Source: Bacilli bacterium | GTDB taxonomy: Bacteria; Bacillota_I; Bacilli_A; RFN20; CAG-826 | Assembly: GCA_034176765.1 (NCBI GenBank) | Contig: JAXFTN010000141.1 | Coordinates: 1-42,799, forward strand | Length of the DNA stretch: 42,799 nucleotides | Reading direction: 5' to 3' | In this document: positions 1 to 36,236 of the stretch, piece after piece | Layout of the letters: the number at the start of each line of letters is the position of its first letter | Position numbering within the stretch: the first letter of the stretch is position 1 | The notes under the pieces: generated by a model | Database searches by the model: none | Told to the model about the DNA's origin: nothing | Seen by the model: only the letters and a program-made list of their open reading frames with translations | Position numbers and translations under genes: made by a program

Positions 1-43
1 GCAAAGACTTAATTAACTTGAAAAGCTTTATTAATGTCTTTGC
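1..43 (-). terminator. Possible hairpin downstream of the protease gene, truncated by the window edge
   Basis: GCAAAGAC (1-8) is the reverse complement of GTCTTTGC (36-43). It lies 9 nt beyond the minus-strand stop at 52-54. Any U-tract would be off-window. Confidence 0.25.
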
Positions 44-51
44 TTTATTAA

Positions 52-864
52 TTATAAGATTTTTAATTCTTCTTTTTGTTCGACTTCTTTTATGAATTCA
101 AGAATGACTTTTAAAGGAATAGCATAATTCATAACAAGAGCATCGTTACTTCCACTAGTAACCATACCAAGTAGTTCTCCATTTTCATTAAATACAGGAC
201 CACCCGAATTACCATTTGTGACTAAAGCAGTAATCATCATATATTCATGGCCACTAATTTCACGCACATTATCAGCTACAATTCCATCAAGAATTGCTAG
301 GCCTTTTCCTTTACTATTTCCAATTGTATATACCTTTTCACCAGTAACACAATCGCCACTTGCAAATGAACAAGATTTATAATTGCTCTCATAAGCAAAA
401 TGTAAAATACATATATCAAGTTCTTTTGAAGCAAATACAAATTCTAATTCATATAATGTATCACTATCATTAAATTTAGCAAATACATTTTCGCATAAAG
501 TAGTATTTTCAGGATCATCTTTATCAAAAACAATATGTGCATTTGTGATTACATAATTTGAATTAATTATAAATCCAGTACCAGTAGAAGCCTTATTAGC
601 AAAATTACAATAAATTGCAACTACACTATCAATGTTATCTTTAAATATATCTTTAGCATCTTTTTTATTAGTTGCACTAGATATATTAGAAGTTTCTACT
701 CTAGATTTTTGAATATATTTATTCCTTTTAGATAAAGAAGAGAAAGTTTCATTACAAGAACTACATACATATGAATAAACAGTATCCTCTTCAACATTTT
801 CTTTAGAAATAACTTTAATATTTTTTGATCCACATATTGGACAAATATCATATATGAATTCCAT
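52..864 (-). CDS. Zinc-ribbon-fused trypsin-like (S1, Trypsin_2-type) serine protease
   Basis: N-terminal four-Cys ribbon CPICGS...CSSCN. Catalytic-triad contexts TNAHIV (His), LDICILH (Asp), GNSGGPVF (Ser). Start moved to ATG 864 (MEFIYD) because GAGGTG lies 6 nt upstream; the ORF-track GTG at 873 sits inside that SD. Follows the TIR gene stop by 12 nt. Confidence 0.8.
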   Translation of the reverse strand: MEFIYDICPICGSKNIKVISKENVEEDTVYSYVCSSCNETFSSLSKRNKYIQKSRVETSNISSATNKKDAKDIFKDNIDSVVAIYCNFANKASTGTGFIINSNYVITNAHIVFDKDDPENTTLCENVFAKFNDSDTLYELEFVFASKELDICILHFAYESNYKSCSFASGDCVTGEKVYTIGNSKGKGLAILDGIVADNVREISGHEYMMITALVTNGNSGGPVFNENGELLGMVTSGSNDALVMNYAIPLKVILEFIKEVEQKEELKIL

Positions 865-876
865 TTTAAACACCTC

Positions 877-3447
877 TTATTTTTTAGGTGAATACTCTTC
901 TACCAAGTGATCAAAGTACTCATATTTATTTTTATAAACAGCTAATTCTTGAAGTAATTTCTTTTCTTTTCTTCTTAAGTTAGCATATTTATTAAACATT
1001 GATTTAGAAGTAATCTTATTACCAATAAATATAAATAGGCGTAAGATAAATACAAAATCAAAGAATGCAGCGATACCTAAGAAAACTTTTCCCAATATTT
1101 CTTGTGCCATATTTGGAGAATGTAAGAAATCTTTAAAGATAAAGAATAGTACATTAAATAAAACTACAAAGAAAAGAAGTGCTTTTGGGAATGTATTTGT
1201 TTTTGACTTTTTATTAGCTTTATTGAACCTTTTCTCACATTTTTTCATTTCTGAATGTATTGAATTTTGAGTGGAGTAAACACTAAGAATATTATCTCTT
1301 TCTTGTTTAAATTCCATATCTTCTTCATGATATTTACGTTGTTTTTTAACAATATCCATAAAGAATTTTGTTTGTTCATCATCAGCATGATTTAACATAG
1401 GAATATACTCATCAAATGATAAAATATCACGTGAATATATTAGTTCCTTTTCATTTTTAACTTCACATTTCGCCATAATTATATAGTAATAAAATGTAGC
1501 TTCTGTAGAGTCAATAGAAGACAATAATTCAAATAAATATTTAGCTGCAGAGAATTTTCCTGTTTCTAAATAAATATTACCTTTTTTAAATATTTCACTA
1601 CTGAAACACTTAATATTTTCAGGATAAAATTTTAATAATTCTGTATAAAAATCTAAATTTAAAGAATCATACGGAATCGCTTTTAAAATTGCTTCAATTT
1701 CTTGTTTTTGTTGATCTTGATTTTGATATTTTAATAAATCTTTTAAACTCTCATAAGTTTTCAATTTATCAATATTAGCATCATATTCAACTAAAGAAGG
1801 ATCAAGAGTTGAACAAGTTGCAATTCTAATTAATGCTCGACGAGCAACATTATTTCCTTCGTCAACACTAATTAATGTATTTGCAATCTCACTTGCCTTA
1901 GAGAAATTACCGCTTGTTACTTCATGAGATAATAATTTAGTTAACCAATAAATATATTTATCAATGTCATCAATTGAAATAATTTTTACTAATATTTCGA
2001 ATAAAGTAAAATCATAATATTCGATAGCTTTTTGTATAAATTGTTCTAAGTAGTCATTTCTTTTACTATATTCATAGACAAAGATTATATCACATAACTT
2101 GTAAGCTTTTTGAGCATTTGCACCAAGAGGATTTTCTAATAATCTTTGGAAAAATTTATAAAATGTTTCAATAATTAAAAGGGCATAATTTTCACTGCAA
2201 TGACGCAATGCTTGTTCGATGAGTTCTAAATCAGTAACTTTTTGTAAATTCATTGTTAATACTGCATCAAGACCTTTTAACTTATTGATACATAAGAATT
2301 TTCTAAAAATAGCATCTCCATCAAGTGGCTCATTTTCTAGAATTTTATTAATGTGGTCAAGTCCTAAATCAAAGACGCCATTATCAATAAATTTATCTGC
2401 AATATTTAATTTTTCATTAACTGTATAAGATTTGCCTTCAATTGCTTCAGCTCCAATAATACGATTTGAAACATCATGCTCACTGCTTAATTTAGTAGCT
2501 TTCTTTCCAATCTCTTGTTCAATTACAGCTTTCTTTAATCCCTTTTTTCCACTAGGAGTATTTTTCAATACACTAGATACATAAGATTCAAGTGAATCCA
2601 TCCAAGTGATATTACTTACATCAATTGCTTGTAATGATTTTAAAGGATTAGGTAGTGTTCCAGGATTCAATCCTTTATATAAAAGAATTAATGAATTACT
2701 TGCTTTTTCTTTATTTACAATTCTTCTTGCAAATCTGGACCATTCATTTTTGACCCACGTTGAAGTAATATATTCTTCTTTAGAACCATAAATGATCATA
2801 ATTTTTGCTGTATTTAAGGCATTAAAAATATATGGTTCATATTTTTCACCATAACAATTCAAAGAAATTCGCGAAAAGAAAACATTATAACCTTTTGACT
2901 TTAAAAAATGATAAACTTCTTGAGCTTCATAACTATCACGTGTTCTTTCAATACCATTTTCAGTTTCGGTATCTTTATAAGAAATGAAAATATCATATGG
3001 TGGAAGCTTTGAAGCTTTCTCGACCCATTCAATACGATTCTTTTCAATTATTTCAGCTTGTTTTTCATAATAATCTTTTTCGTCTTTACTACCATAACGT
3101 AAAGCTAATTTATAGTTCTTATCTTCATATAATGAAGCATAACTTGTTGCATAACATGTAGGAATTTTCTTTCCATCATAATCGGTCTCATATTTGATAC
3201 CATATTTAGAAAGTAATAATCCCCAATAATTACGAGATGAATGTGGGTATTTAACAACTATATCTGAAAATAAATTTTCAGCTTCTTCAAAATTACATAA
3301 TCTTAATGCTTGAGAAGCATTGTAATAAAGGGTGTCTTCTTCATTTGATAATTCTTCTGGTTTATAGGCACCACATGCTTCACATACCCATTTCCCATTT
3401 TTATATACATATGTACCACCACATATATTACAAATATTTTTGTCCAT
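877..3447 (-). CDS. Zinc-ribbon / TIR domain / long helical-repeat protein with C-terminal membrane hairpin
   Basis: N-terminal CNICGG...CEACG ribbon followed by TPR-like helices. The central segment YDIFISYKDTE...NVFFSRISL...IMIIYGS...STWVKNEWSRF matches the TIR (TIR_2) strand-helix pattern, including a conserved Glu. A helical region of more than 400 aa follows. Two hydrophobic helices lie near the C-terminus (ALLFFVVLFNVLFFIF and VFLGIAAFFDFVFILRLFIFIG). GGGGGTG SD upstream. Confidence 0.8.
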   Translation of the reverse strand: MDKNICNICGGTYVYKNGKWVCEACGAYKPEELSNEEDTLYYNASQALRLCNFEEAENLFSDIVVKYPHSSRNYWGLLLSKYGIKYETDYDGKKIPTCYATSYASLYEDKNYKLALRYGSKDEKDYYEKQAEIIEKNRIEWVEKASKLPPYDIFISYKDTETENGIERTRDSYEAQEVYHFLKSKGYNVFFSRISLNCYGEKYEPYIFNALNTAKIMIIYGSKEEYITSTWVKNEWSRFARRIVNKEKASNSLILLYKGLNPGTLPNPLKSLQAIDVSNITWMDSLESYVSSVLKNTPSGKKGLKKAVIEQEIGKKATKLSSEHDVSNRIIGAEAIEGKSYTVNEKLNIADKFIDNGVFDLGLDHINKILENEPLDGDAIFRKFLCINKLKGLDAVLTMNLQKVTDLELIEQALRHCSENYALLIIETFYKFFQRLLENPLGANAQKAYKLCDIIFVYEYSKRNDYLEQFIQKAIEYYDFTLFEILVKIISIDDIDKYIYWLTKLLSHEVTSGNFSKASEIANTLISVDEGNNVARRALIRIATCSTLDPSLVEYDANIDKLKTYESLKDLLKYQNQDQQKQEIEAILKAIPYDSLNLDFYTELLKFYPENIKCFSSEIFKKGNIYLETGKFSAAKYLFELLSSIDSTEATFYYYIIMAKCEVKNEKELIYSRDILSFDEYIPMLNHADDEQTKFFMDIVKKQRKYHEEDMEFKQERDNILSVYSTQNSIHSEMKKCEKRFNKANKKSKTNTFPKALLFFVVLFNVLFFIFKDFLHSPNMAQEILGKVFLGIAAFFDFVFILRLFIFIGNKITSKSMFNKYANLRRKEKKLLQELAVYKNKYEYFDHLVEEYSPKK

Positions 3448-3460
3448 ACCTACACACCCC

Positions 3461-4597
3461 CTACATCAAACCATTTTTATAAAGTTCAAATTTTTCTAAA
3501 TCTTCTTTCGAAGTTTTTGGTTTATTTTTTGCAATAATTACATCACAATCATTTTGTGAAATTAATACTTCTTTTCCAGACTTAACTGATTTTTTATATG
3601 CCTCAGCACGAATCTTGTCACACATTGAAACTATATCGCCACCATTGTATCCTTCAGTTTTTTGTGCTAATAGATTAAAATCAAAATTTTCAGTTAAAGG
3701 AACGCCTTTCATAGCTTTTTTTATCATAAATAAACGTGCTTCAAAATCTGGTAAACCCACATATATATGTGTATCAAATCGACCACCACGGCACATTGCA
3801 GGATCTAAAGCCCATGGTCTATTAGTAGCACCAATTAATAGTAACATTTTACAAGTTTTAGATTTTTTAAATCCATCAACTTTTGTTAAAAATGTTGCAA
3901 CAAATCGAGCCATTTCAGCGTCAACTCCACCAGTTGAATCTTCTCTTTTTGATGCGACTGCATCCATTTCGTCAAAGAAAATAATAGCTCTTTCATTCTT
4001 TTGAGCCTCTTCAAAAAGTGCATCTAATTGTTTAGAACTTTCACCCATATATTTTGAAATTAAATCAGAACATTTTATTGAATAAAATTTTGCATCAACT
4101 TCACCAGCAATTGCTCGTGCAATAAATGTCTTACCAGTACCTGGTGGGCCATATAAAATGATTTTACCACCAGCCTTAATGTTATATTTTTTTGCTAATT
4201 CTGGATTTTTTAAAGGTTCAATTACATTATAAATAATTTGATCTTTTACATCTTGTAAACCTGCAACATCATTAAATGTAACTTTATCTTCTTTAGGAAT
4301 TTCAATAGCTTGAAATGTTTTTTCTTCCTCTTCAGAATCTCCTTTTTGTTTATTAGTTATATTTTTAACTGGACGTTTTTTTACACAGTTTTCTCTAACA
4401 AAAACAAGAATTTTTTCCGCTACTTTATGATATTCAGTTCTTACATCATAACTAGTTGCATCAATTGAAATTTTATTTGCTAATTCGGCTGCTTTTAAAA
4501 AGGCACTTCTAGCACTTTCAATGTCACCTTTAGCAAAATACTCTTTGCCTTGTTGATAAAAACTTTTATACGCCTCTACTACTGATCCATTATTCAT
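3461..4597 (-). CDS. Vps4-like AAA+ ATPase with N-terminal MIT/TPR-like three-helix domain
   Basis: Walker A ILYGPPGTGKT, Walker B IIFFDEMDA, second region of homology GATNRPWALDPAMCRGGRFD. SDLISKYMGES and the PW motif resemble the Vps4/katanin/spastin clade. The first ~75 aa (AYKSFYQQGKEYFAKGDIESARSAFLKAAELANK...EYHKVAEKILVFV) look like an MIT-type helical bundle. GGAGG SD. Confidence 0.8.
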   Translation of the reverse strand: MNNGSVVEAYKSFYQQGKEYFAKGDIESARSAFLKAAELANKISIDATSYDVRTEYHKVAEKILVFVRENCVKKRPVKNITNKQKGDSEEEEKTFQAIEIPKEDKVTFNDVAGLQDVKDQIIYNVIEPLKNPELAKKYNIKAGGKIILYGPPGTGKTFIARAIAGEVDAKFYSIKCSDLISKYMGESSKQLDALFEEAQKNERAIIFFDEMDAVASKREDSTGGVDAEMARFVATFLTKVDGFKKSKTCKMLLLIGATNRPWALDPAMCRGGRFDTHIYVGLPDFEARLFMIKKAMKGVPLTENFDFNLLAQKTEGYNGGDIVSMCDKIRAEAYKKSVKSGKEVLISQNDCDVIIAKNKPKTSKEDLEKFELYKNGLM

Positions 4598-4619
4598 AGA
4601 GAACCTCCACTAGTAATAA

Positions 4620-5210
4620 TTATAATAATTTATTTTTTTCTGCTTCGATTTCTTTTGTTAAATCAATGTCACTTACTTTTGGCATTGAAGCATTTTGTCC
4701 TGTTAATTTAGCTCTAGCTGCATCAATCATTGGACGTACAGAAGCAATTTCAGCTTGAGAGCGTACTCTATTAGCTGGGTTAGATGATTTCATAACACTT
4801 CCCATTGCTTTTTGAGATATTTTAATTTGTCTCATATATTTAGCAATTTTTACATTTGCTCTTTGAATTTTTGCAATATTTGGCATCTTATTTTTATTGT
4901 TTGCCATGTTATTTAATGCATTTACAGCCATAGCCATATTTGTTGCAATTGAATTAGATACATTAATGATATCAAAATTTGCTTTTGTTTGAGTTAAACT
5001 AGAAATAACATCATTTAATTCCATCAATGCACTTAAAGCAACGTCATAACTTCCTTGGTCTCCATTAACTTCAGCCTCAGCAGCAATATGTGCATATTCT
5101 TGTCTTTTTGCTTTTAATTCGTTGATTTGATCATTGAAAATTTGCATTTGCTCATCACGTTGCATTTGAGCCATGATTTCTTTTTCTGCTTTTGTCTTAA
5201 AAAATGCCAT
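4620..5210 (-). CDS. ESCRT-III (Snf7/CHMP)-like helical protein
   Basis: 196 aa, all-helical by composition, with a basic N-terminus MAFFKTKAEK and a long heptad hairpin region. The Met/Asn/Ala-rich segment AMAVNALNNMANNKNKMPNIAKIQRANVKIAKYM resembles the CHMP alpha3-alpha4 region. Acidic amphipathic C-terminus DIDLTKEIEAEKNKLL. The ATG overlaps the upstream stop (TAATG). Confidence 0.6.
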   Translation of the reverse strand: MAFFKTKAEKEIMAQMQRDEQMQIFNDQINELKAKRQEYAHIAAEAEVNGDQGSYDVALSALMELNDVISSLTQTKANFDIINVSNSIATNMAMAVNALNNMANNKNKMPNIAKIQRANVKIAKYMRQIKISQKAMGSVMKSSNPANRVRSQAEIASVRPMIDAARAKLTGQNASMPKVSDIDLTKEIEAEKNKLL

Positions 5211-6223
5211 TATTTTGTACCCCCGACTTCTAATTCTTCACTAGCATCAATTCCTGAATCCATTTCTTTTTGATTACTTTTCAATTCTTCTTTTTCTTTT
5301 TTCTTACGAAGAAGTTGTTCTTTATAAGCTAAAGCATCTTGAGAAACAGATATTGTTGATGTGTTAACTCCAAATACTTTTTCATCCATATTTTTTGTTC
5401 TTTCAGCAATTAATTGAGTATCTTTTTCCATTCTCTTTAAAATAGATATAGCTTTCTCAGGCTCAGAAATAACTGATTTTAATCTAGACATATTTAGAAG
5501 CGCTCTTGCTTTTCCTAAATCTTCTAACGAATAATCACTTTCTACTACAATCTCATTAGCATTGCTATAAATTAAATCTAATAAATTAAAGCAAGCTGAA
5601 TAATTAGCTTTTCTAACATTGAGCATATCTAATTTACTCTTTAAAGAAGATATCTTACGATATAATTCATTAATACGACGTTCATTCTCTTCTTTTAGCA
5701 TTAAACTATCTAATTCGTTTAAATCTTTTTCTAATGAATAAATATCTTTTTCTAATCTTTGTTCATTCGCTACAAATTGATTTTTAATAGTTGCTAATTC
5801 ATCAAGTCTATTTTGTAATTTCTTTCTAGACCATGTCATTTTTTCTTTTTCGGTAGTACCAATTTCTTCACTATTCATATCACCTTGGAGTACAGATTTC
5901 CAAACATCAACTGAATAAGTAAGATTTGATACACCTTCTTCAAGTCTAGTTACTAAATCTTGATTAGCTAATTCATTTAATTCAACGACTTGTTTTGAAA
6001 CTGTTTCAGCAATACTTGAAATATCTTCTTTACCAGTTCCTACACAATTATCAAGTCCTGAAATGGCATCTTTTAATTCTACAGCTAATGCATCGACTGC
6101 ATCTTTATCTAAATAACTATTTACTTTATGAGTTTCAAGTTTAAAACATACTTTCTTTAAATCTTTTAATGCTTTGTCTTTAAGAGCATTATTATTTTTA
6201 ATTGATGGACTATATTTTTTCAT
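5210..6223 (-). CDS. 337-aa coiled-coil protein, possible second ESCRT-III/PspA-superfamily subunit or adaptor
   Basis: Long heptad-rich helices (KLQNRLDELATIKNQFVANEQRLEKDIYSLEKDLNELDSL...INELYRKISSLKSKLDMLNVRKANY) and an acidic C-terminal tail DSGIDASEELEVGG. GGAGGA SD. Its stop overlaps the next start. Confidence 0.6.
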   Translation of the reverse strand: MKKYSPSIKNNNALKDKALKDLKKVCFKLETHKVNSYLDKDAVDALAVELKDAISGLDNCVGTGKEDISSIAETVSKQVVELNELANQDLVTRLEEGVSNLTYSVDVWKSVLQGDMNSEEIGTTEKEKMTWSRKKLQNRLDELATIKNQFVANEQRLEKDIYSLEKDLNELDSLMLKEENERRINELYRKISSLKSKLDMLNVRKANYSACFNLLDLIYSNANEIVVESDYSLEDLGKARALLNMSRLKSVISEPEKAISILKRMEKDTQLIAERTKNMDEKVFGVNTSTISVSQDALAYKEQLLRKKKEKEELKSNQKEMDSGIDASEELEVGGTK

Positions 6224-6237
6224 ACATTATTCCTCCA

Positions 6238-6891
6238 TTAAGCTACTTTGCTTCTAATTCTTTCAAGATCATCACTATTAATATGAATACCTTCAACTGT
6301 TAAAGAATTTAATTTAAGACCCATTGACTTAAATGATTTTTCTTCACATAAAGAGCTGAACAATCTTTCTTGTAATTCCTTTGCTTTTAAAGTTGCATTG
6401 AAGACTGAAACTTCTTTATCAACTAAAAGATTATTTAATATAGGAGCACCCACTGATTTAATTACTGAGATTGTCTTTTCTCTTAAATCATCAATAGTAA
6501 CAACATTGAATCCAGAATATGCGGCAATCAATCGACCAAAATCTTCAATTTCGAGAGCGTATTTTCCATTTGCTCCAGCTTTATACAATTCATTTTGATG
6601 ATCGTTTTTGATTTCAATATTTCCAAATCCCCATGCAAGTAAAGGTAAAGAATTAATTAATATAAAACATACTTTGACATTTTGCCCTAATAAATCTTTT
6701 CCATATTCTTTTAATAAGTTAATATGATTACAATTATCAACTCTGAAACTTAATTTTTCATTAATATATACGAAACCTTTATAACCATTAGGAACTGTAA
6801 GAAAAACGCTTTTATCAATTTTAGCAGAAGGTGAAAATTGAACAACACAATCAGTTAAATAACTACTAGGTGCCAATTCATTTGTTTTCAT
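6238..6891 (-). CDS. Divergent SPFH/Band-7-like protein (YdjI-type fold, no zinc ribbons)
   Basis: Colinear block similarity by eye to the two YdjI-like proteins in this window. LTVPNGYKGFVYINEKL matches LVVREGQRAIFINKGKL. VKVCFILINS...WGFG matches ADIYFIQTK...WKTP. GANGKYALEIEDFG matches EAEGKFSFKVTEPS. MGLKLNSLTVEGIHIN matches LGLDVCGLYIENIVLP. GGGGGA SD. Confidence 0.6.
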   Translation of the reverse strand: MKTNELAPSSYLTDCVVQFSPSAKIDKSVFLTVPNGYKGFVYINEKLSFRVDNCNHINLLKEYGKDLLGQNVKVCFILINSLPLLAWGFGNIEIKNDHQNELYKAGANGKYALEIEDFGRLIAAYSGFNVVTIDDLREKTISVIKSVGAPILNNLLVDKEVSVFNATLKAKELQERLFSSLCEEKSFKSMGLKLNSLTVEGIHINSDDLERIRSKVA

Positions 6892-6906
6892 TTGTCATAA
6901 TCCCCC

Positions 6907-7254
6907 TTATTTCTTTTCAATAATTTCGCAAAGTTGATTTAATGTTGCTTCACTAAGATCATCTTTAGTCAAAGCAAAAATTAATTTCTTTTGCGTTTCA
7001 CTTAGTTCAGATAAATCAACTTTTACAGAATCCGAAGTAGCAGCAATTGCATCACGTAATGACTTGACTTCTTTTTCCGTTAAATCATAATTTTTGCAAA
7101 CAATGGCATCAAAATTCTTTGGAACATTTCGTTTGCCATTTTCAATAGCAGATAAATAAGAAGAAGATAATTCTAGTTTCTCAGCCATTGTTCTCATACT
7201 GTCTCCAGAATTAATACGAATAATTCGAAGAACTTTACCTAATTGAGTAATCAT
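6907..7254 (-). CDS. XRE-family helix-turn-helix transcriptional regulator, first gene of the operon
   Basis: LGKVLRIIRINSGDSMRTMAEKLELSSSYLSAIENGKRNVP is a classic XRE/Cro-C1 HTH. GAGGGGG SD. Promoter immediately upstream. Confidence 0.85.
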   Translation of the reverse strand: MITQLGKVLRIIRINSGDSMRTMAEKLELSSSYLSAIENGKRNVPKNFDAIVCKNYDLTEKEVKSLRDAIAATSDSVKVDLSELSETQKKLIFALTKDDLSEATLNQLCEIIEKK

Positions 7255-7283
7255 AAATAATGCCCCCTCTATATTACAAGAAA

Positions 7284-7312
7284 ATTATACCAACATTTAA
7301 ATTGATTGTCTA
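7284..7312 (-). promoter_or_regulatory. Sigma-A-like promoter of the seven-gene operon
   Basis: On the minus strand: TAGACA (7312-7307), a 17-nt spacer, then TGgTATAAT extended -10 (TATAAT at 7289-7284), about 30 nt upstream of the XRE ATG. Confidence 0.55.
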
Positions 7313-7342
7313 CAAAATTGTAAACACTTTTTTCAATTTTGT
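7312..7342. promoter_or_regulatory. 9-bp perfect inverted repeat abutting the -35 box (candidate XRE operator or weak ansA terminator)
   Basis: ACAAAATTG (7312-7320) and CAATTTTGT (7334-7342) are separated by 13 nt. No U-tract follows on the minus strand. Confidence 0.4.
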
Positions 7343-7359
7343 GATATTTTTTATAATTT

Positions 7360-8358
7360 TTATAGGTTGATATCGTTATTTATTTTGGTATAAAGCAATT
7401 TTTTAATTAAATTTTTATCATTAGTTTGCCCTAAAACCCACATTACTTTACAAACTAAACTTTCAAGAGTCATGTCATATGCTTCAAGAACTTCATATTT
7501 ATCTTTAATTTTCTTACCGACTTTATATAATCCCAAATTACTACCTTCATAAGGAACTTGTGTTGTTATTATTAAAGTTTTATTTGACAAAATAAATCTT
7601 TCTAAAGCATCAGAAAATTGTTGTTCATCATACATTGGTATTCCACCAACACCAAATGATTCAATTATACATGCATCATAATGTTCGCTCACATAATCAA
7701 ATATATCTAAGCTCATACCAGGAATTAGTTTAAGTACAAAAACTTTAGGATTCATTGAATCATAGAATTTAACTCCTTTATTAACATCGATATTAACTTC
7801 AATGTATTCAATTACTTTACCATCTTGAATATTTGCAATTGCAGGATAATTAATACTAGTAAATGCATTATATGATTTTGTTCTATTTTTCTTAGCACGA
7901 GTACCAAGTATAACTTTACCATCAAAAACAATAGTAACCCCATGGCCTGTTGGATGACTAGCATAAATAAAGGCATCAAATAAATTGCTACGTGCATCGC
8001 TATCTTTCATAAAAATAGATTTTTGTGATCCAGTTAAGACTATTGGTTTAATTGAATTTTGAATTAAATAAGATAATGCTGAAGCTGTAAAAGCCATAGT
8101 ATCAGTACCATGAGTGATTACAAATCCATCATATTTATCATAATTTTCTTTAATAGTTTCAACCATTTTTAACCAATGTACATAGTTGATATTTGTACTA
8201 TCAAAATTAAAAAGTTCAATAGTGTCAATATTACATACATTAGATAAATCATCTAAATATGATAATAATTCTTTACTATTGATTTTAGGCATAAAGCCAT
8301 CGATTGTAGGTTTAGAAGCTATTGTTCCACCTGTTGTAATAAGTAATATATTTTTCAT
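7360..8358 (-). CDS. ansA: L-asparaginase, type I
   Basis: ILLITTGGTIAS and ITHGTDTMAFTASALSYL signature blocks. 332 aa length is typical. Confidence 0.9.
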   Translation of the reverse strand: MKNILLITTGGTIASKPTIDGFMPKINSKELLSYLDDLSNVCNIDTIELFNFDSTNINYVHWLKMVETIKENYDKYDGFVITHGTDTMAFTASALSYLIQNSIKPIVLTGSQKSIFMKDSDARSNLFDAFIYASHPTGHGVTIVFDGKVILGTRAKKNRTKSYNAFTSINYPAIANIQDGKVIEYIEVNIDVNKGVKFYDSMNPKVFVLKLIPGMSLDIFDYVSEHYDACIIESFGVGGIPMYDEQQFSDALERFILSNKTLIITTQVPYEGSNLGLYKVGKKIKDKYEVLEAYDMTLESLVCKVMWVLGQTNDKNLIKKLLYTKINNDINL

Positions 8359-8443
8359 AAAAGTACCTTCATTTTTAATTTATCACAACACTAATATAAA
8401 CAAAAGATAATTATAATATTCCCATGAAAAAATTGCAGTTTTT

Positions 8444-8488
8444 AAATGTACTCCTTTCCTGTTTTTCTCTAGAATTAGGAGTACATTT
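8444..8488. repeat. 12-bp perfect inverted repeat with 21-nt loop in the bioY-ansA intergenic region
   Basis: AAATGTACTCCT (8444-8455) pairs with AGGAGTACATTT (8477-8488). No adjacent U-tract on either strand. Confidence 0.5.
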
Positions 8489-8596
8489 CATACTTGAATC
8501 TCTTTTTTATTATTTGATTAATATTATTAATCTTAAAACTTCTATGTATATTTCAAATAATCTAAATAAATAATTATATAAAATAAAAATAGAATA

Positions 8597-8623
8597 CTAC
8601 TGATCACCTTTTTACATCAGTAG
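8597..8623 (-). terminator. Probable rho-independent terminator of bioY
   Basis: CTACTGAT/ATCAGTAG 8-bp stem with an 11-nt loop, followed on the minus strand by TATTCTATTTTTATTTT. Confidence 0.5.
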
Positions 8624-8666
8624 CATAAATATTTATTTTTAATTAATATTCATATATCTAAAAATT

Positions 8667-9206
8667 TCATTTATAAAGAACTGGTTTTAACCTTTTACCA
8701 ATTACAGTTACTAAATATATTTTTAAAGCATCTATTAAAACAAAAGGAACAACGCAAGACATTAAAATTTTTCCAAAAGTTATAGATGTGCCTCTAGAAA
8801 CATAAACAATATAGAACCATAAAGTACCTACAATATAAATAGCAAGTGTTCCAATGAGCATTAAAAAAATGTAATGAATCTTTTTAATTTCAAAGATTTT
8901 TTCAAATATCCAATAAATAATCCCAGCAAATATAAATCCAACAATAAATCCACCAGTTGGACCTAAAATATATGCTAATCCTCCATTAAATGAAGCAAAA
9001 ACAGGAAGCCCTAAAGCGCCTAATAAAACATATAATATAATTGACAAAGTTCCTCTTTTACCACCAAGAACCATTAAAGTTAAAAATACACCGAATGTCT
9101 GAAGAGTAAATGGGACAACAAAAGGTACTGAAATCCACGAACAAATGCATATTACAGCAGCAAATAATCCAATATAACAAATATCTTTAACTCTATCATG
9201 TTCCAT
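8667..9206 (-). CDS. bioY: Biotin transporter S-component BioY
   Basis: Six hydrophobic helices. GGKRGTLSIILYVLLGALGLPVFA and GPTGGFIVGFIFAG are typical BioY blocks. Confidence 0.85.
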   Translation of the reverse strand: MEHDRVKDICYIGLFAAVICICSWISVPFVVPFTLQTFGVFLTLMVLGGKRGTLSIILYVLLGALGLPVFASFNGGLAYILGPTGGFIVGFIFAGIIYWIFEKIFEIKKIHYIFLMLIGTLAIYIVGTLWFYIVYVSRGTSITFGKILMSCVVPFVLIDALKIYLVTVIGKRLKPVLYK

Positions 9207-9263: not shown

Positions 9264-9354
9264 TGGCGGAGCAAGAGAGACTCGAACTCTCGCACCAGTT
9301 ACCCGATCTACTTCCTTAGCAGGGAAGCCCCTTCACCAACTTGGGTATTGCTCC
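9264..9354 (-). tRNA. tRNA-Ser (anticodon GCU), encoded CCA
   Basis: The reverse complement reads GGAGCAATACCCAAGTTGGTGAAGGGGCTTCCCTGCTAAGGAAG...GGTGCGAGAGTTCGAGTCTCTCTTGCTCCGCCA. 7-bp acceptor stem, CTTCC/GGAAG anticodon stem with loop CTGCTAA, long variable arm, GTTCGAGTC T-loop. Confidence 0.9.
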
Positions 9355-16194: not shown

Positions 16195-16285
16195 GGAGAA
16201 ATACTCAAGTGGTTGAAGAGACTAGTTTCGAAAACTAGCAGGAGGTGCAAGCCTCGCGAGGGTTCAAATCCCTCTTTCTCCGCCA
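16195..16285 (+). tRNA. tRNA-Ser (anticodon CGA), encoded CCA
   Basis: GGAGAAATACTCAAGTGGTTGAAGAGACTAGTTTCGAAAACTAG...GAGGGTTCAAATCCCTCTTTCTCCGCCA. CTAGT/ACTAG anticodon stem with loop TTCGAAA. Long variable arm. Confidence 0.9.
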
Positions 16286-36145: not shown

Positions 36146-36236
36146 GGAGAAATACCCAAGAGGCTGAAGGGGCTGGCTTGGAAAGCTAGTAGATGGGTAA
36201 CACTATGCGAGGGTTCGAATCCCTCTTTCTCCGCCA
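36146..36236 (+). tRNA. tRNA-Ser (anticodon GGA), encoded CCA
   Basis: GGAGAAATACCCAAGAGGCTGAAGGGGCTGGCTTGGAAAGCTAG...GAGGGTTCGAATCCCTCTTTCTCCGCCA. Anticodon loop TTGGAAA. Long variable arm. Confidence 0.9.

Follow-up and report, generated by a model that had tools for sequence, protein, structure and literature searches.

The window analysed here, a 42,799-nt stretch of a Bacilli bacterium genome (contig JAXFTN010000141.1), contains a conserved, previously undescribed operon of seven genes that appears to join an ESCRT-III-like protein to a Vps4-style MIT-AAA ATPase in a bacterium, a pairing that reviews report as missing there. We infer, with about even confidence, that this operon is a membrane-associated conflict system built on an ESCRT-III/MIT-AAA scaffold, most likely with an anti-phage, abortive-infection or membrane-guard function. 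On this reading it is chromosomal and self-contained, and travels between genomes as a unit.

Organisation of the seven-gene operon

Seven close-packed minus-strand ORFs span positions 52–7254 and make up a single unit, led by a strong promoter and followed by a terminator-like hairpin. In transcription order they encode an HTH regulator, an SPFH protein, a coiled-coil protein, the ESCRT-III-like protein, the MIT-AAA ATPase, a TIR membrane protein and a protease. Recomputed coordinates and distances agree with the gaps given in the sequence-only reading (15, 14, −1, 22, 13 and 12 nt), with the stop of the 337-aa coiled-coil gene overlapping the start of the ESCRT-III-like gene in TAATG. For the protease ORF the ATG at 864 is taken as the start; the mechanical call runs on to a GTG at 873. 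Purine-rich SD sequences, claimed by that reading for each gene, were present upstream of 7/7 starts (in listed ORF order AGAGGGGG, AAGGGGGA, TGGAGGA, CGGGGGT, TGGAGG, AGGGGGTG and AGAGG, the shortest).

The single sigma-A-like promoter proposed at 7284–7312 on the minus strand (TAGACA, 17-nt spacer, TG-extended TATAAT) also stood, with 11/12 matches and the top score within 8.7 kb (positions 1–8700). Since the total of promoter-like sites in positions 1–8700 was not above that of shuffled sequence, only the position and quality of this site serve as evidence. Directly abutting its −35 box is a 13-nt inverted repeat (ACAAAATTGTAAA/TTTTCAATTTTGT; 7312–7342), whose arms are 92% complementary and 5 nt apart, which is a candidate operator of the HTH protein. 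A minus-strand scan for terminator-like sites within the cluster found none, in line with the claimed absence of an internal terminator. 3′ of the protease stop, the window contains the stem alone of a terminator-like hairpin (1–44, minus strand), the T-run lying past the window edge; the hairpin is complete at locus L001 (94–99% identical), where it reads GCAAAGAC...GTCTTTGC, then TTTTATTT. It was not called by the consensus scanner because its loop is long. GC content was alike in the cluster (0.281) and the remaining window (0.272). These data confirm that the seven genes form one operon.

The predicted ESCRT-III/MIT-AAA scaffold and its partners

The XRE-family HTH regulator (115 aa; 6907–7254), which has a helical extension at its C-terminus, matched Pfam HTH_31, HTH_19 and HTH_3 as well as PADLOC HTH_VI (2.4e-10) and, more weakly, control-protein and CapH models. 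Its gene comes first in the cluster at most related loci. The following gene encodes a soluble SPFH protein (217 aa; 6238–6891) that exceeds the gathering score of Band_7_1 (PF13421; E = 5.6e-6) and has no predicted TM segment; both family assignments had been made by eye and are borne out. SPFH homologs occur in 32/38 loci, and related loci also hold a longer form of ~495 aa with an additional conserved C-terminal domain. The conserved helical/coiled-coil protein (337 aa; 5210–6223) has homologs in 34/38 loci, no family in Pfam, PADLOC or NCBIfam searches, and generic coiled-coil matches only in the PDB. Considered as an ESCRT-III-like family member, it showed no relation on comparison.

The 196-aa protein (4620–5210, minus strand) was confirmed as ESCRT-III-like, with weak-to-moderate statistics, by its AF2 model, Foldseek, PDB profile matches and conservation. 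It is predicted to comprise an N-terminal MAFFK[TS]K, invariant in the family, a long α1–α2 hairpin, three short helices, a variable linker and a conserved C-terminal acidic helix that is possibly a MIT-interacting motif. In a profile search of the PDB, CdvB was the best match (2.2e-4), followed by four CHMP3 entries, and the ESCRT-III superfamily accounted for 15/16 of the top Foldseek matches. To this extent the earlier Snf7/CHMP-like call stands, but the window protein falls below Pfam Snf7 itself, a model that 1/22 family members reach. An hhalign comparison with thin CdvB/CHMP3 templates gave a probability of only 2–6%, and no Foldseek E-value for this model or the N-terminal MIT-like model was ≤ 1e-3. 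No PspA_IM30 match was found in Pfam or NCBIfam, and a control search of a viral library gave no coherent family. In 1.84 billion proteins the family comprises 47 clusters (50% identity).

The ATPase (378 aa; 3461–4597, minus strand) is ordered as an MIT-fold three-helix bundle (residues 4–70, nt 4388–4588), a linker, a single classical AAA module (3.8e-40) with intact Walker A/B and sensor 1 and the arginine-finger region RGGRFD, an AAA lid (AAA_lid_3) and a C-terminal helix. Its description as MIT-like plus AAA agrees with the structure search, in which some two dozen of the 40 best Foldseek matches to the N-terminal domain were MIT domains (TM up to 0.72/0.83, rmsd 1.0–1.8 Å) and the CdvC MIT domain superposed on the bundle with TM 0.71/0.80 and rmsd 1.8 Å; Pfam MIT was not reached. 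The further claim of Vps4-type motifs held in part. Vps4 is matched in pore loop 1 and in the C-terminal helix, but RGGRFD is of the CDC48/PAN/FtsH type, the beta-domain is absent, the CdvC model aligns end-to-end at 184 bits, under its cut-off, and Vps4_C was missed (16.6 bits versus 21.3). CDC48, PAN and FtsH scored above CdvC in NCBIfam, and a second AAA type, in related loci, exceeds the Vps4_C gathering score. The ATPase also matched PADLOC IetA (1.4e-44, 151 bits) and NCBIfam IteA (127 bits versus a 510-bit cut-off). From sequence and modelling, it is Vps4-like in architecture and not a demonstrable Vps4/CdvC family member. The ESCRT-III and MIT calls, each weak, reinforce each other, since binding ESCRT-III is the dedicated role of MIT domains and the two genes lie side by side or nearly so at every locus.

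Putative effector genes and related loci

The membrane protein (856 aa; 877–3447, minus strand) consists of a zinc ribbon, TPR-like helices, a TIR domain (residues 153–279, nt 2611–2991; TIR_2 4.4e-11), helical repeats, a predicted two-TM hairpin (residues 757–802, nt 1042–1179) and a 54-aa tail. The last gene encodes a 270-aa fusion of a zinc ribbon with a trypsin-like serine protease (52–864; Trypsin_2 1.9e-23), and both architectures match those read by eye. The catalytic Glu in W-x-x-[ND]-E-W-x-R is invariant across 23 TIR paralogs, and the His/Asp/Ser triad and CxxC...CxxC of the protease are conserved among 17 sequences. PADLOC matched the protease to RT-Protease_XI (9e-23) and Avs1b (1e-7), and no catalogued defence TIR model in PADLOC/NCBIfam matched the TIR protein. 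Some paralogs carry ~1,400 extracellular aa with LRR_5, Flg_new and Lectin_C domains, whereas the window protein has its TM hairpin only and no ectodomain.

The genes co-occur elsewhere: a co-linear HTH–SPFH–coiled-coil–ESCRT-III block was found in 38 other genomes with unlike flanking genes, the hosts being uncultured gut Firmicutes, several of them Acholeplasmatales- or Anaeroplasma-type MAGs. The combination had not been recognised as a named defence system, and no described system in PADLOC, NCBIfam or the literature matches it. Downstream of the ESCRT-III gene lies a polymorphic slot with one to four zinc-ribbon–TIR paralogs of 400–2,370 aa, with AbiH at two loci (E 1e-51 to 1e-53; PADLOC AbiH 7.7e-33), and with LmuB-like, PDC-S66 and PIN-like proteins. 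The MIT-AAA and protease co-occur in 18/22 loci and are directly adjacent in 15, and the protease is missing from 5/5 loci with only the other AAA type. Three very divergent loci (L039–L041) hold homologs 21–26% identical with AAA, protease and HTH neighbours in rearranged order; TIR was not found at them. Because homologs this divergent retain AAA and protease neighbours, we regard the TIR as an accessory effector, variable and outside the core. Some flanks contain defence genes (PDC-S01 twice, PDC-S34, BrxP, MzaA, SoFic), a modest defence-island signal, and several flank matches could be housekeeping relatives (UvrD-like helicase, cysteine desulfurase, methylase). The cluster was absent from the phages, plasmids and IMG/VR contigs searched.

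Proposed function and relation to known systems

In the conflict system that we favour, the XRE HTH protein would repress the operon via the inverted repeat beside the −35 box, and the SPFH, coiled-coil and ESCRT-III-like proteins would assemble at the inner face of the membrane, anchored by the invariant MAFFKTK, in a possible parallel to the recruitment of PspA by YdjI in B. subtilis and to ESCRT-III gathering on damaged membrane. The zinc-ribbon–TPR–TIR membrane proteins would be sensor-effectors: LRR_5, Flg_new and C-type lectin ectodomains in many relatives may detect a cue from outside the cell or from the envelope (phage adsorption, for instance), and the two-TM protein of the window may react to membrane perturbation directly. 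IetAS is a protease-toxin/ATPase-antitoxin pair (PMC13069673) in which the ATPase restrains the protease; the MIT-AAA may, by analogy, also control the zinc-ribbon trypsin-like protease encoded beside it. Once the ATPase is drawn to an ESCRT-III polymer where the membrane is perturbed, the protease would be released or switched on to cut a component of the system, trypsin-like proteases being activators of pro-effectors in Hachiman and AVAST (PMC12799240), and clustered TIR domains would hydrolyse NAD+ or produce a signal, arresting the infected cell. This proposal draws on the operon anatomy, the ESCRT-III-like fold and profile matches and the MIT fold on an AAA with intact motifs; on recurrence in 38 species with unrelated flanks and an AAA/protease/HTH association that outlasts 21–26% identity; on the polymorphic slot, invariant TIR Glu, conserved protease triad and AAA–protease coupling; and on the IetA match, the defence-associated protease matches and the defence genes in some flanks. 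Against it, PADLOC/NCBIfam called no system and matched the TIR protein to no catalogued defence model, the flank signal is modest, GC is ordinary, and phages, plasmids and IMG/VR lack the cluster. L039–L041 are without TIR, and the MIM–MIT contact and protease target are proposals. The large LRR_5/Flg_new/lectin ectodomains are also typical of adhesins, and the core of ESCRT-III, MIT-AAA, SPFH and zinc-ribbon/TM proteins parallels archaeal ESCRT cargo-sorting loci.

The main rival, which we hold tentatively and think somewhat unlikely, is an archaeal-style cargo-sorting or vesicle-forming machine, in which the SPFH, coiled-coil and ESCRT-III-like proteins form a budding/scission scaffold recycled by the MIT-AAA, the ectodomain-bearing zinc-ribbon–TPR–TIR–TM proteins are cargo or adaptors (e.g. 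adhesins displayed, shed or vesicle-packed), the TIR is an oligomerisation module and the protease a processing/shedding enzyme. ESCRT-III and MIT-AAA are the canonical membrane-scission pair, the ectodomains are adhesin-type, and several hosts belong to the wall-less Acholeplasmatales/Anaeroplasma lineages, where outward budding is physically easy. Meth_adaptin ESCRT loci of similar make-up (Vps4, ESCRT-III, an SPFH-coiled-coil-zinc-ribbon protein and zinc-ribbon/TM-linked adaptors) are read by their authors as serving protein sorting/vesicle formation (PMC10936438). Against this rival stand the invariant catalytic Glu, the AbiH, LmuB-like and PIN-like genes in the same slot, and the close IetAS-like AAA–protease coupling; patchy distribution, unrelated flanks and an XRE regulator at the head are typical of conflict systems, and a TIR protein with a TM hairpin only has no obvious cargo function. 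The ectodomain paralogs and the archaeal cargo-sorting parallel are additions to the interpretation given in the sequence-only reading.

We consider it distinctly unlikely that the operon serves, in the manner of Psp/YdjGHI, as a specialised system against envelope stress or for membrane repair, with the ESCRT-III-like protein in place of PspA, SPFH recruiting to damage, MIT-AAA recycling, and the protease and TIR protein acting in quality control or signalling. A housekeeping repair system should be stable in synteny and widely passed on by vertical descent, but the flanks are unrelated and the family numbers just 47 clusters; such a system would not be expected to carry AbiH, giant ectodomains or a polymorphic set of TIR paralogs, and Pfam and NCBIfam searches found no PspA_IM30, PspB/C, LiaI or Toastrack partners. 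In its favour is the window SPFH protein, a member of Band_7_1, which we take to be the Pfam family of YdjI. YdjI is tied to PspA membrane recruitment in work cited in PMC10936438 and PMC7619361, the zinc-ribbon membrane and coiled-coil proteins echo YdjG and YdjH (PMC11237479), and membrane repair is the proposed primordial ESCRT-III role (PMC7619361). Convergence, with generic helical hairpins and bundles mimicking ESCRT-III and MIT in an IetAS-like AAA–protease module (toxin-antitoxin or defence) accompanied by TIR effectors and by unrelated coiled-coil accessories, would explain the lack of Foldseek E-values ≤ 1e-3, the missed Pfam Snf7 and MIT, the 2–6% hhalign probability on thin templates, the arginine finger and NCBIfam scores favouring CDC48, PAN and FtsH over CdvC, and the 151 bits on IetA. 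We find it very improbable: two independent methods single out ESCRT-III in very large libraries (CdvB/CHMP3 as the top five PDB sequence matches; 15/16 of the top fold matches), the viral library yielded no coherent family, MIT domains recur among the top 40 matches, the second AAA type exceeds Vps4_C, and the two calls are mutually supportive, with genes side by side or nearly so at every locus.

Among known systems, archaeal ESCRT (CdvABC of Sulfolobales, especially Meth_adaptin; Makarova et al. 2024, PMC10936438) shares an ESCRT-III-family gene beside an MIT-AAA, and SPFH, coiled-coil and zinc-ribbon/TM-linked accessories in one locus, a likeness also seen in the CdvB match and CdvC superposition. 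The window operon differs in its bacterial hosts (gut Firmicutes, Mollicutes-like MAGs), in missing CdvA, winged-helix ESCRT-II-like and adaptin-appendage proteins, in its ATPase (RGGRFD, no beta-domain, CdvC/Vps4_C cut-offs missed) and in adding TIR, trypsin-like protease, XRE and occasional AbiH. PspA-YdjGHI likewise combines ESCRT-III-superfamily, Band_7_1 SPFH, zinc-ribbon membrane and coiled-coil proteins, and its SPFH-to-ESCRT-III recruitment logic is plausible here; the window protein, however, aligns with CdvB/CHMP3, not PspA/Vipp1, and lacks PspA_IM30, the MIT-AAA, TIR and protease are missing from Psp systems, and distribution here is patchy and island-like. In most related loci, as in IetAS, a classical AAA gene directly precedes one for a serine protease, and the protease-toxin/ATPase-regulator logic could apply, but IetS is subtilisin-like whereas the protease here is of the trypsin-like S1 type and bears a zinc ribbon, the ATPase has an MIT domain and falls short of IteA (127 bits versus 510), and the two genes belong to a larger ESCRT-III/SPFH/TIR operon of seven. 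TIR_2 with a conserved catalytic Glu is shared with Thoeris and other TIR abortive-infection systems, although a ThsA-type partner and a match to any catalogued defence TIR model are both lacking. As in Toll-like receptors, a single TM helix links TIR and a leucine-rich-repeat ectodomain in the paralogs; the window copy has no ectodomain. Their domain order is the reverse of that in the receptors, with an N-terminal cytoplasmic TIR and a C-terminal ectodomain, and BspA-type LRR, Flg_new and lectin domains replace the TLR-type LRRs.

Organization and distribution of the operon

The first 7.3 kb of the window hold seven minus-strand genes: an XRE-family HTH gene (6907-7254; Pfam HTH_31/19/3), an SPFH gene (6238-6891; Band_7_1, E 5.6e-6), a 337-aa helical/coiled-coil gene (5210-6223), the gene for a 196-aa ESCRT-III-like protein (4620-5210; assigned by family profile and AF2 model), an MIT-AAA ATPase gene (3461-4597; AAA and AAA_lid_3), the gene for a zinc-ribbon-TIR membrane protein (877-3447; TIR_2) and that for a zinc-ribbon trypsin-like protease (52-864; Trypsin_2). 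ORF calling reproduced this layout as the sequence-only reading had described it, with gaps of 15, 14, -1, 22, 13 and 12 nt and a purine-rich Shine-Dalgarno sequence ahead of every start codon, and Pfam confirmed its XRE HTH, SPFH/Band-7, AAA, TIR and trypsin-like assignments. The single promoter that it proposed was also borne out: TAGACA-17-TG-TATAAT (7312..7284, minus strand; 11/12 matches) is the top-scoring promoter site of the region, and a scan of the cluster found no minus-strand terminator-like site inside it. A 13-nt inverted repeat, ACAAAATTGTAAA/TTTTCAATTTTGT (7312-7342), adjoins the -35 hexamer of this promoter and could be the operator of the XRE regulator. The stop codon of the protease gene is followed by a GCAAAGAC...GTCTTTGC hairpin and then TTTTATTT; this arrangement is whole in the near-identical locus L001, and the stem alone fits in the window (positions 1-44).

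The GC fraction is 0.281 in the cluster versus 0.272 in the rest of the window, which looks like ordinary chromosome with asparaginase-like and BioY-like ORFs and three tRNA-Ser genes. The latter lie at 9264-9354 (minus strand), 16195-16285 (plus) and 36146-36236 (plus), with anticodons GCT, CGA and GGA. None of them adjoins the cluster, so nothing points to integration targeted at a tRNA gene.

Scanning one genome per species yielded 38 related loci. Their hosts are gut Clostridia, Christensenellales, Bacilli and Anaeroplasma/Acholeplasmatales MAGs together with two oddly binned MAGs, and in nearly every locus the HTH, SPFH, coiled-coil and ESCRT-III-like genes keep the same linear order. The sequence-only reading had treated the genes as one system, and they do co-occur in other genomes: between 17 and 37 of the 38 loci share a given system gene, against at most one other locus for the genes flanking L001, which argues that the cluster travels as a unit. 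Two loci have a non-Firmicutes assignment, L002 (Elusimicrobiaceae MAG) and L011 (Bacteroidaceae MAG); their ESCRT-III-like proteins are 74-78% identical, and their placement is due either to horizontal transfer or to mis-binning of contigs. Searches for the ESCRT-III-like protein in phage genomes, plasmids and IMG/VR viral contigs were all negative, and the system is thus without evident phage or plasmid carriage.

The ESCRT-III-like protein and its neighbouring ATPase

As a single sequence, the 196-aa protein had no match in Pfam or NCBIfam, and PADLOC and a direct PDB sequence search gave nothing usable, so that ESCRT-III was reached solely through a family profile and a structure model. 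The family comprises 654 clusters at 90% identity, all unnamed and mostly from gut Clostridia, Christensenellales, Bacilli and Acholeplasmatales-type MAGs. At 50% identity it forms 47 clusters in an exhaustive HMMER search of 1.84 billion representatives, which provided no bridge to Snf7, PspA or any known family. When the family profile was compared with all PDB sequences, the top match was Sulfolobus islandicus CdvB (E 2.2e-4, residues 20-105 against 32-117), followed by four CHMP3 entries (E 0.003-0.03) and CHMP2A (E 0.18). Comparison by hhalign with very thin CdvB/CHMP3 templates, built on three partial CdvB sequences, gave the same register at E 0.006-0.027 and a probability of 2-6%.

In the AF2 model of the protein (mean pLDDT 66), hairpin helices 7-49 and 52-103 exceed a pLDDT of 80 and are followed by helices 112-128, 133-143 and 152-170, a disordered linker and a terminal helix (184-195). 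The predicted fold thus has the long alpha1-alpha2 hairpin, shorter alpha3-alpha5 helices and flexible C-terminal tail of the ESCRT-III superfamily. Using Foldseek against the PDB, we found that 15 of the 16 top matches belong to this superfamily (Asgard ESCRT-IIIB, CHMP2A/3, CHMP1B, Vipp1, CdvB/CdvB2 and PspA), the best at E 0.014 and none at or below 1e-3; the viral structure library, searched as a negative control, returned no coherent family and no meaningful match. An N-terminal MAFFK[TS]K motif is invariant across the family (M1, F3, K5, K7) and resembles the N-termini of CHMP3 and CHMP2A, and a conserved acidic helix, D-L-x-x-E-I-E-A-E-K-N-K-L-L, follows the variable linker at the C-terminus. 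ESCRT-III proteins carry a membrane anchor at the N-terminus and an MIT-interacting motif at the C-terminus; the two conserved elements occupy these positions and are candidates for the same roles, the C-terminal helix not fitting the canonical MIM1 consensus. In all, the 196-aa protein quite probably belongs to the ESCRT-III superfamily, and we rate it nearer to the CdvB/CHMP branch than to PspA. Its earlier designation as Snf7/CHMP-like is supported, with weak-to-moderate statistics, by the profile matches to CdvB and CHMP3 and by Foldseek; Pfam Snf7 (PF03357) is missed by the window protein and reached by one divergent member among 22 (E 0.0016).

The gene immediately downstream encodes a 378-aa ATPase with a single AAA module of the classical clade (PF00004, E 3.8e-40, with AAA_lid_3). 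Twenty orthologs retain the Walker A and B, sensor 1 and pore-loop sequences (GPPGTGKT, IIFFDEMD, ATNRP and SKYMGES) and the Arg residues. Among NCBIfam models, CDC48 (222 bits), PAN (218) and FtsH (207) score above CdvC (183.7 bits against a cut-off of 650), and the CdvC model is the sole one to align end to end, N-terminal region included (23-373 against 24-364 of 370). PADLOC IetA gave 151 bits; we rejected IetA as an identity for this protein, the NCBIfam IteA score being 127.5 bits against a cut-off of 510.

Pfam MIT (PF04212) matched none of ten N-terminal domains from the two ATPase types found in these loci, and the first 80 residues of the MIT-AAA match, by sequence, one single TPR unit. 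AF2 modelled residues 1-85 (pLDDT 86, pTM 0.71) as a three-helix bundle (4-23, 26-46 and 50-70), for which about two dozen of the top 40 PDB matches in Foldseek are MIT domains (best E 0.053), among them katanin p60-N, NRBF2, VPS4A/B, yeast Vps4, MITD1, calpain-7, spartin and Sulfolobus CdvC. The bundle superposes on CdvC 2w2u_B and 2v6y with TM-scores of 0.71/0.80 (rmsd 1.8 A) and on MITD1 with 0.72/0.83 (rmsd 1.0 A), so the N-terminal MIT bundle typical of Vps4 and CdvC is predicted to be present. At the other end, an S-x-x-D-L-x-x-F-E-x-Y helix is present, and Pfam Vps4_C, a model that takes in the beta-domain and the C-terminal helix, scores 16.6 bits against a cut-off of 21.3, covering only the terminal helix (model positions 27-56). 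The arginine-finger region reads RGGRFD, which we take to be the CDC48/PAN/FtsH type as opposed to the meiotic-clade RRRF type. The protein therefore has the architecture of Vps4, CdvC and katanin, namely a modelled MIT domain, a linker, one AAA module and a C-terminal helix. We do not place it in the Vps4/CdvC family, since it scores below family level with both the CdvC equivalog and Vps4_C. The proposed MIT-like, classic-clade ATPase is supported by the MIT fold and the AAA module; the Vps4-type motifs seen in it are so only in part, as pore loop 1 and the C-terminal helix fit and the arginine finger does not.

Related loci may also encode a second AAA type (L019:10587-11867; L002:6724-7944; L017:9772-11223; L022:3465-4745; L027:11749-12969; L030:5719-7125). 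This optional protein of 406-483 aa has a different helical N-terminal domain and a long acidic linker and is about 37% identical to the MIT-AAA of the same locus. Unlike the window ATPase, it clears the gathering score of Vps4_C (24.5 against 21.3 bits).

Partner proteins and the variable block

The protease joins an N-terminal zinc ribbon to a Trypsin_2 domain whose His/Asp/Ser triad is kept across orthologs. It is found in 18 of the 22 loci with an MIT-AAA, directly adjacent in 15, and in none of the five loci whose only AAA is the second type. The 337-aa protein is conserved, helical/coiled-coil and without detectable relatives; tested as a second ESCRT-III or PspA-like protein, it proved unrelated to the ESCRT-III-like protein. 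SPFH proteins in many loci take a long form of about 495-711 aa (L002:1402-2898; L015:7481-8974; L038:1958-3442; L017:6029-8164), in which an acidic or coiled-coil spacer, internally repeated in L017, separates the SPFH domain from a conserved C-terminal domain of about 190 aa that lacks a zinc ribbon and matches nothing in Pfam.

The window TIR protein consists of an N-terminal zinc ribbon, TPR-like helices, TIR_2 and two TM segments at residues 757-802, and the TIR Glu, within W-x-x-[ND]-E-W-x-R, is invariant in 23 paralogs. Related loci encode one to four zinc-ribbon-TPR-TIR proteins of 400-2,370 aa. Giant paralogs (L002:7978-14112; L038:6131-13243; L017:11287-17988; L012:10607-16330) have, on the cytoplasmic side, a zinc ribbon, TPR, TIR and helical repeats, then one TM helix and an ectodomain of about 850-1,440 aa with LRR_5 (BspA), Flg_new and, in one case, a C-type lectin. 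Their topology is that of a Toll-like receptor in reverse order.

These TIR proteins belong to a variable block 3' of the ESCRT-III-like gene, made up of the optional second AAA, the one to four TIR proteins, and the MIT-AAA with the protease. Two loci carry AbiH (L023:4919-5860 and L031:576-1517; Pfam E 1e-51 to 1e-53, PADLOC AbiH 7.7e-33) directly between the ESCRT-III-like and zinc-ribbon-TIR genes on the same strand, and LmuB-like, PDC-S66-like, TM2 and weak PIN-like proteins occupy the same slot in single loci. Within 6.5 kb of the loci, bona fide defence genes comprise PDC-S01 (twice), PDC-S34, BrxP, MzaA and SoFic, other matches being ambiguous; the defence-gene signal in the flanks is modest.

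The most divergent ESCRT-III-like homologs (21-26% identity) also adjoin AAA ATPases, one of them a clear MIT-AAA at 335 bits, and trypsin-like proteases and an HTH regulator lie nearby, with the gene order rearranged. The protease comes first in L039:482-8584, where two AAA genes flank the ESCRT-III gene; L040:2648-7220 holds an HTH gene, three unknown proteins, the ESCRT-III-like gene and an MIT-AAA; and L041:623-6420 contains a Sel1-repeat-protease fusion. No TIR domain was detected in these three loci. Gene retention here suggests a core of ESCRT-III-like protein, MIT-AAA and protease, with the upstream helical and SPFH proteins, and since AAA and protease are kept without a detectable TIR, the TIR proteins are likely to be accessory effectors.

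Possible function and relation to known systems

We give about an even chance to the best-supported reading, a membrane-associated conflict system in which the XRE protein would repress the operon and the SPFH, coiled-coil and ESCRT-III-like proteins would build a sub-membrane assembly, with the zinc-ribbon-TIR membrane proteins as sensor-effectors. [quoted passage not shown] A perturbation that diverts the ATPase would then free the protease and trigger the TIR NADase; Hachiman and AVAST are precedents for effectors activated by a protease (PMC12799240). We infer every one of these steps.

The main rival, an ESCRT-type cargo-sorting or vesicle machine, strikes us as somewhat unlikely. It would account for the adhesin-type ectodomains of the TIR paralogs and has a parallel in archaeal Meth_adaptin loci, which join Vps4, ESCRT-III, an SPFH-coiled-coil-zinc-ribbon protein and zinc-ribbon/TM adaptors (PMC10936438). 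The SPFH link would suit a Psp-like repair system, but the patchy distribution and the polymorphic TIR/AbiH slot do not, and we consider such a role improbable. That the ESCRT-III and MIT resemblances are purely convergent seems very improbable, since two independent calls, each weak by itself, fall on neighbouring genes for proteins of two kinds known to bind each other. A bolder reading, which we regard as doubtful, is a genuine bacterial ESCRT-III/Vps4-type immune membrane guard, in which TM TIR receptors with LRR/lectin ectodomains would sense phage at the surface or membrane damage, and the MIT-AAA would read the state of the polymer and gate suicide by protease and TIR NADase. If true, it would be a prokaryotic counterpart of TLR-type sensing and of ESCRT control of programmed cell death.

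Necroptosis and pyroptosis are restrained by ESCRT-III in eukaryotic cells; to our knowledge, no link between membrane remodelling and effectors has been described in bacterial immunity. [quoted passage not shown] As candidate surface-sensing TIR receptors, the TM TIR proteins carrying LRR and lectin ectodomains would be without precedent in bacteria, and in practice human and animal gut commensals would supply a new candidate defence system. According to recent reviews, a Vps4-like ATPase 'appears absent in bacteria' (PMC7619361), and ESCRT components beyond the PspA/ESCRT-III superfamily occur in archaea 'but not in bacteria', where ESCRT homologs are said not to be identifiable (PMC10936438). 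The operon described here combines a CdvB/CHMP3-like ESCRT-III protein with both an MIT-AAA and an SPFH protein.

Among known systems, IetAS shares the adjacency of AAA and protease seen in 15 of 22 related loci, but it joins the IetA ATPase to the subtilisin-like IetS, and the partner protease here is Trypsin_2 and not a subtilase. PspA-YdjGHI and Psp share the Band_7_1 SPFH partner (E 5.6e-6 in the window) but are defined by PspA_IM30 together with Band_7_1; no PspA_IM30 match was found here, and the family profile prefers CdvB and CHMP3 over PspA/Vipp1. Thoeris shares TIR_2 with its conserved Glu, but it combines a ThsB-type TIR with ThsA, and the cluster has no ThsA-like (SIR2/Macro-SLOG) gene; PADLOC has no match for the TIR protein, and NCBIfam Thoeris ThcB4 reaches E 0.0029 (16.5 bits against a cut-off of 220). 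PADLOC and NCBIfam recognised no system at the cluster and full-text literature searches returned no description of the gene combination, in agreement with the sequence-only reading, which knew it as no named defence system. The closest prior art is the comparative genomics of PSP, which reports rare bacterial Snf7-clade proteins and Vps4-like transfers with snf7 displaced (PMC11237479); the 'Tir' of that paper is the CesT/Tir chaperone and not a TIR domain. The system may work like Cdv/ESCRT, PspA-YdjGHI, IetAS or Thoeris and is not demonstrably a member of any. It is best described as an ESCRT-III/MIT-AAA/SPFH module newly joined, in bacteria, to TIR and protease effectors.
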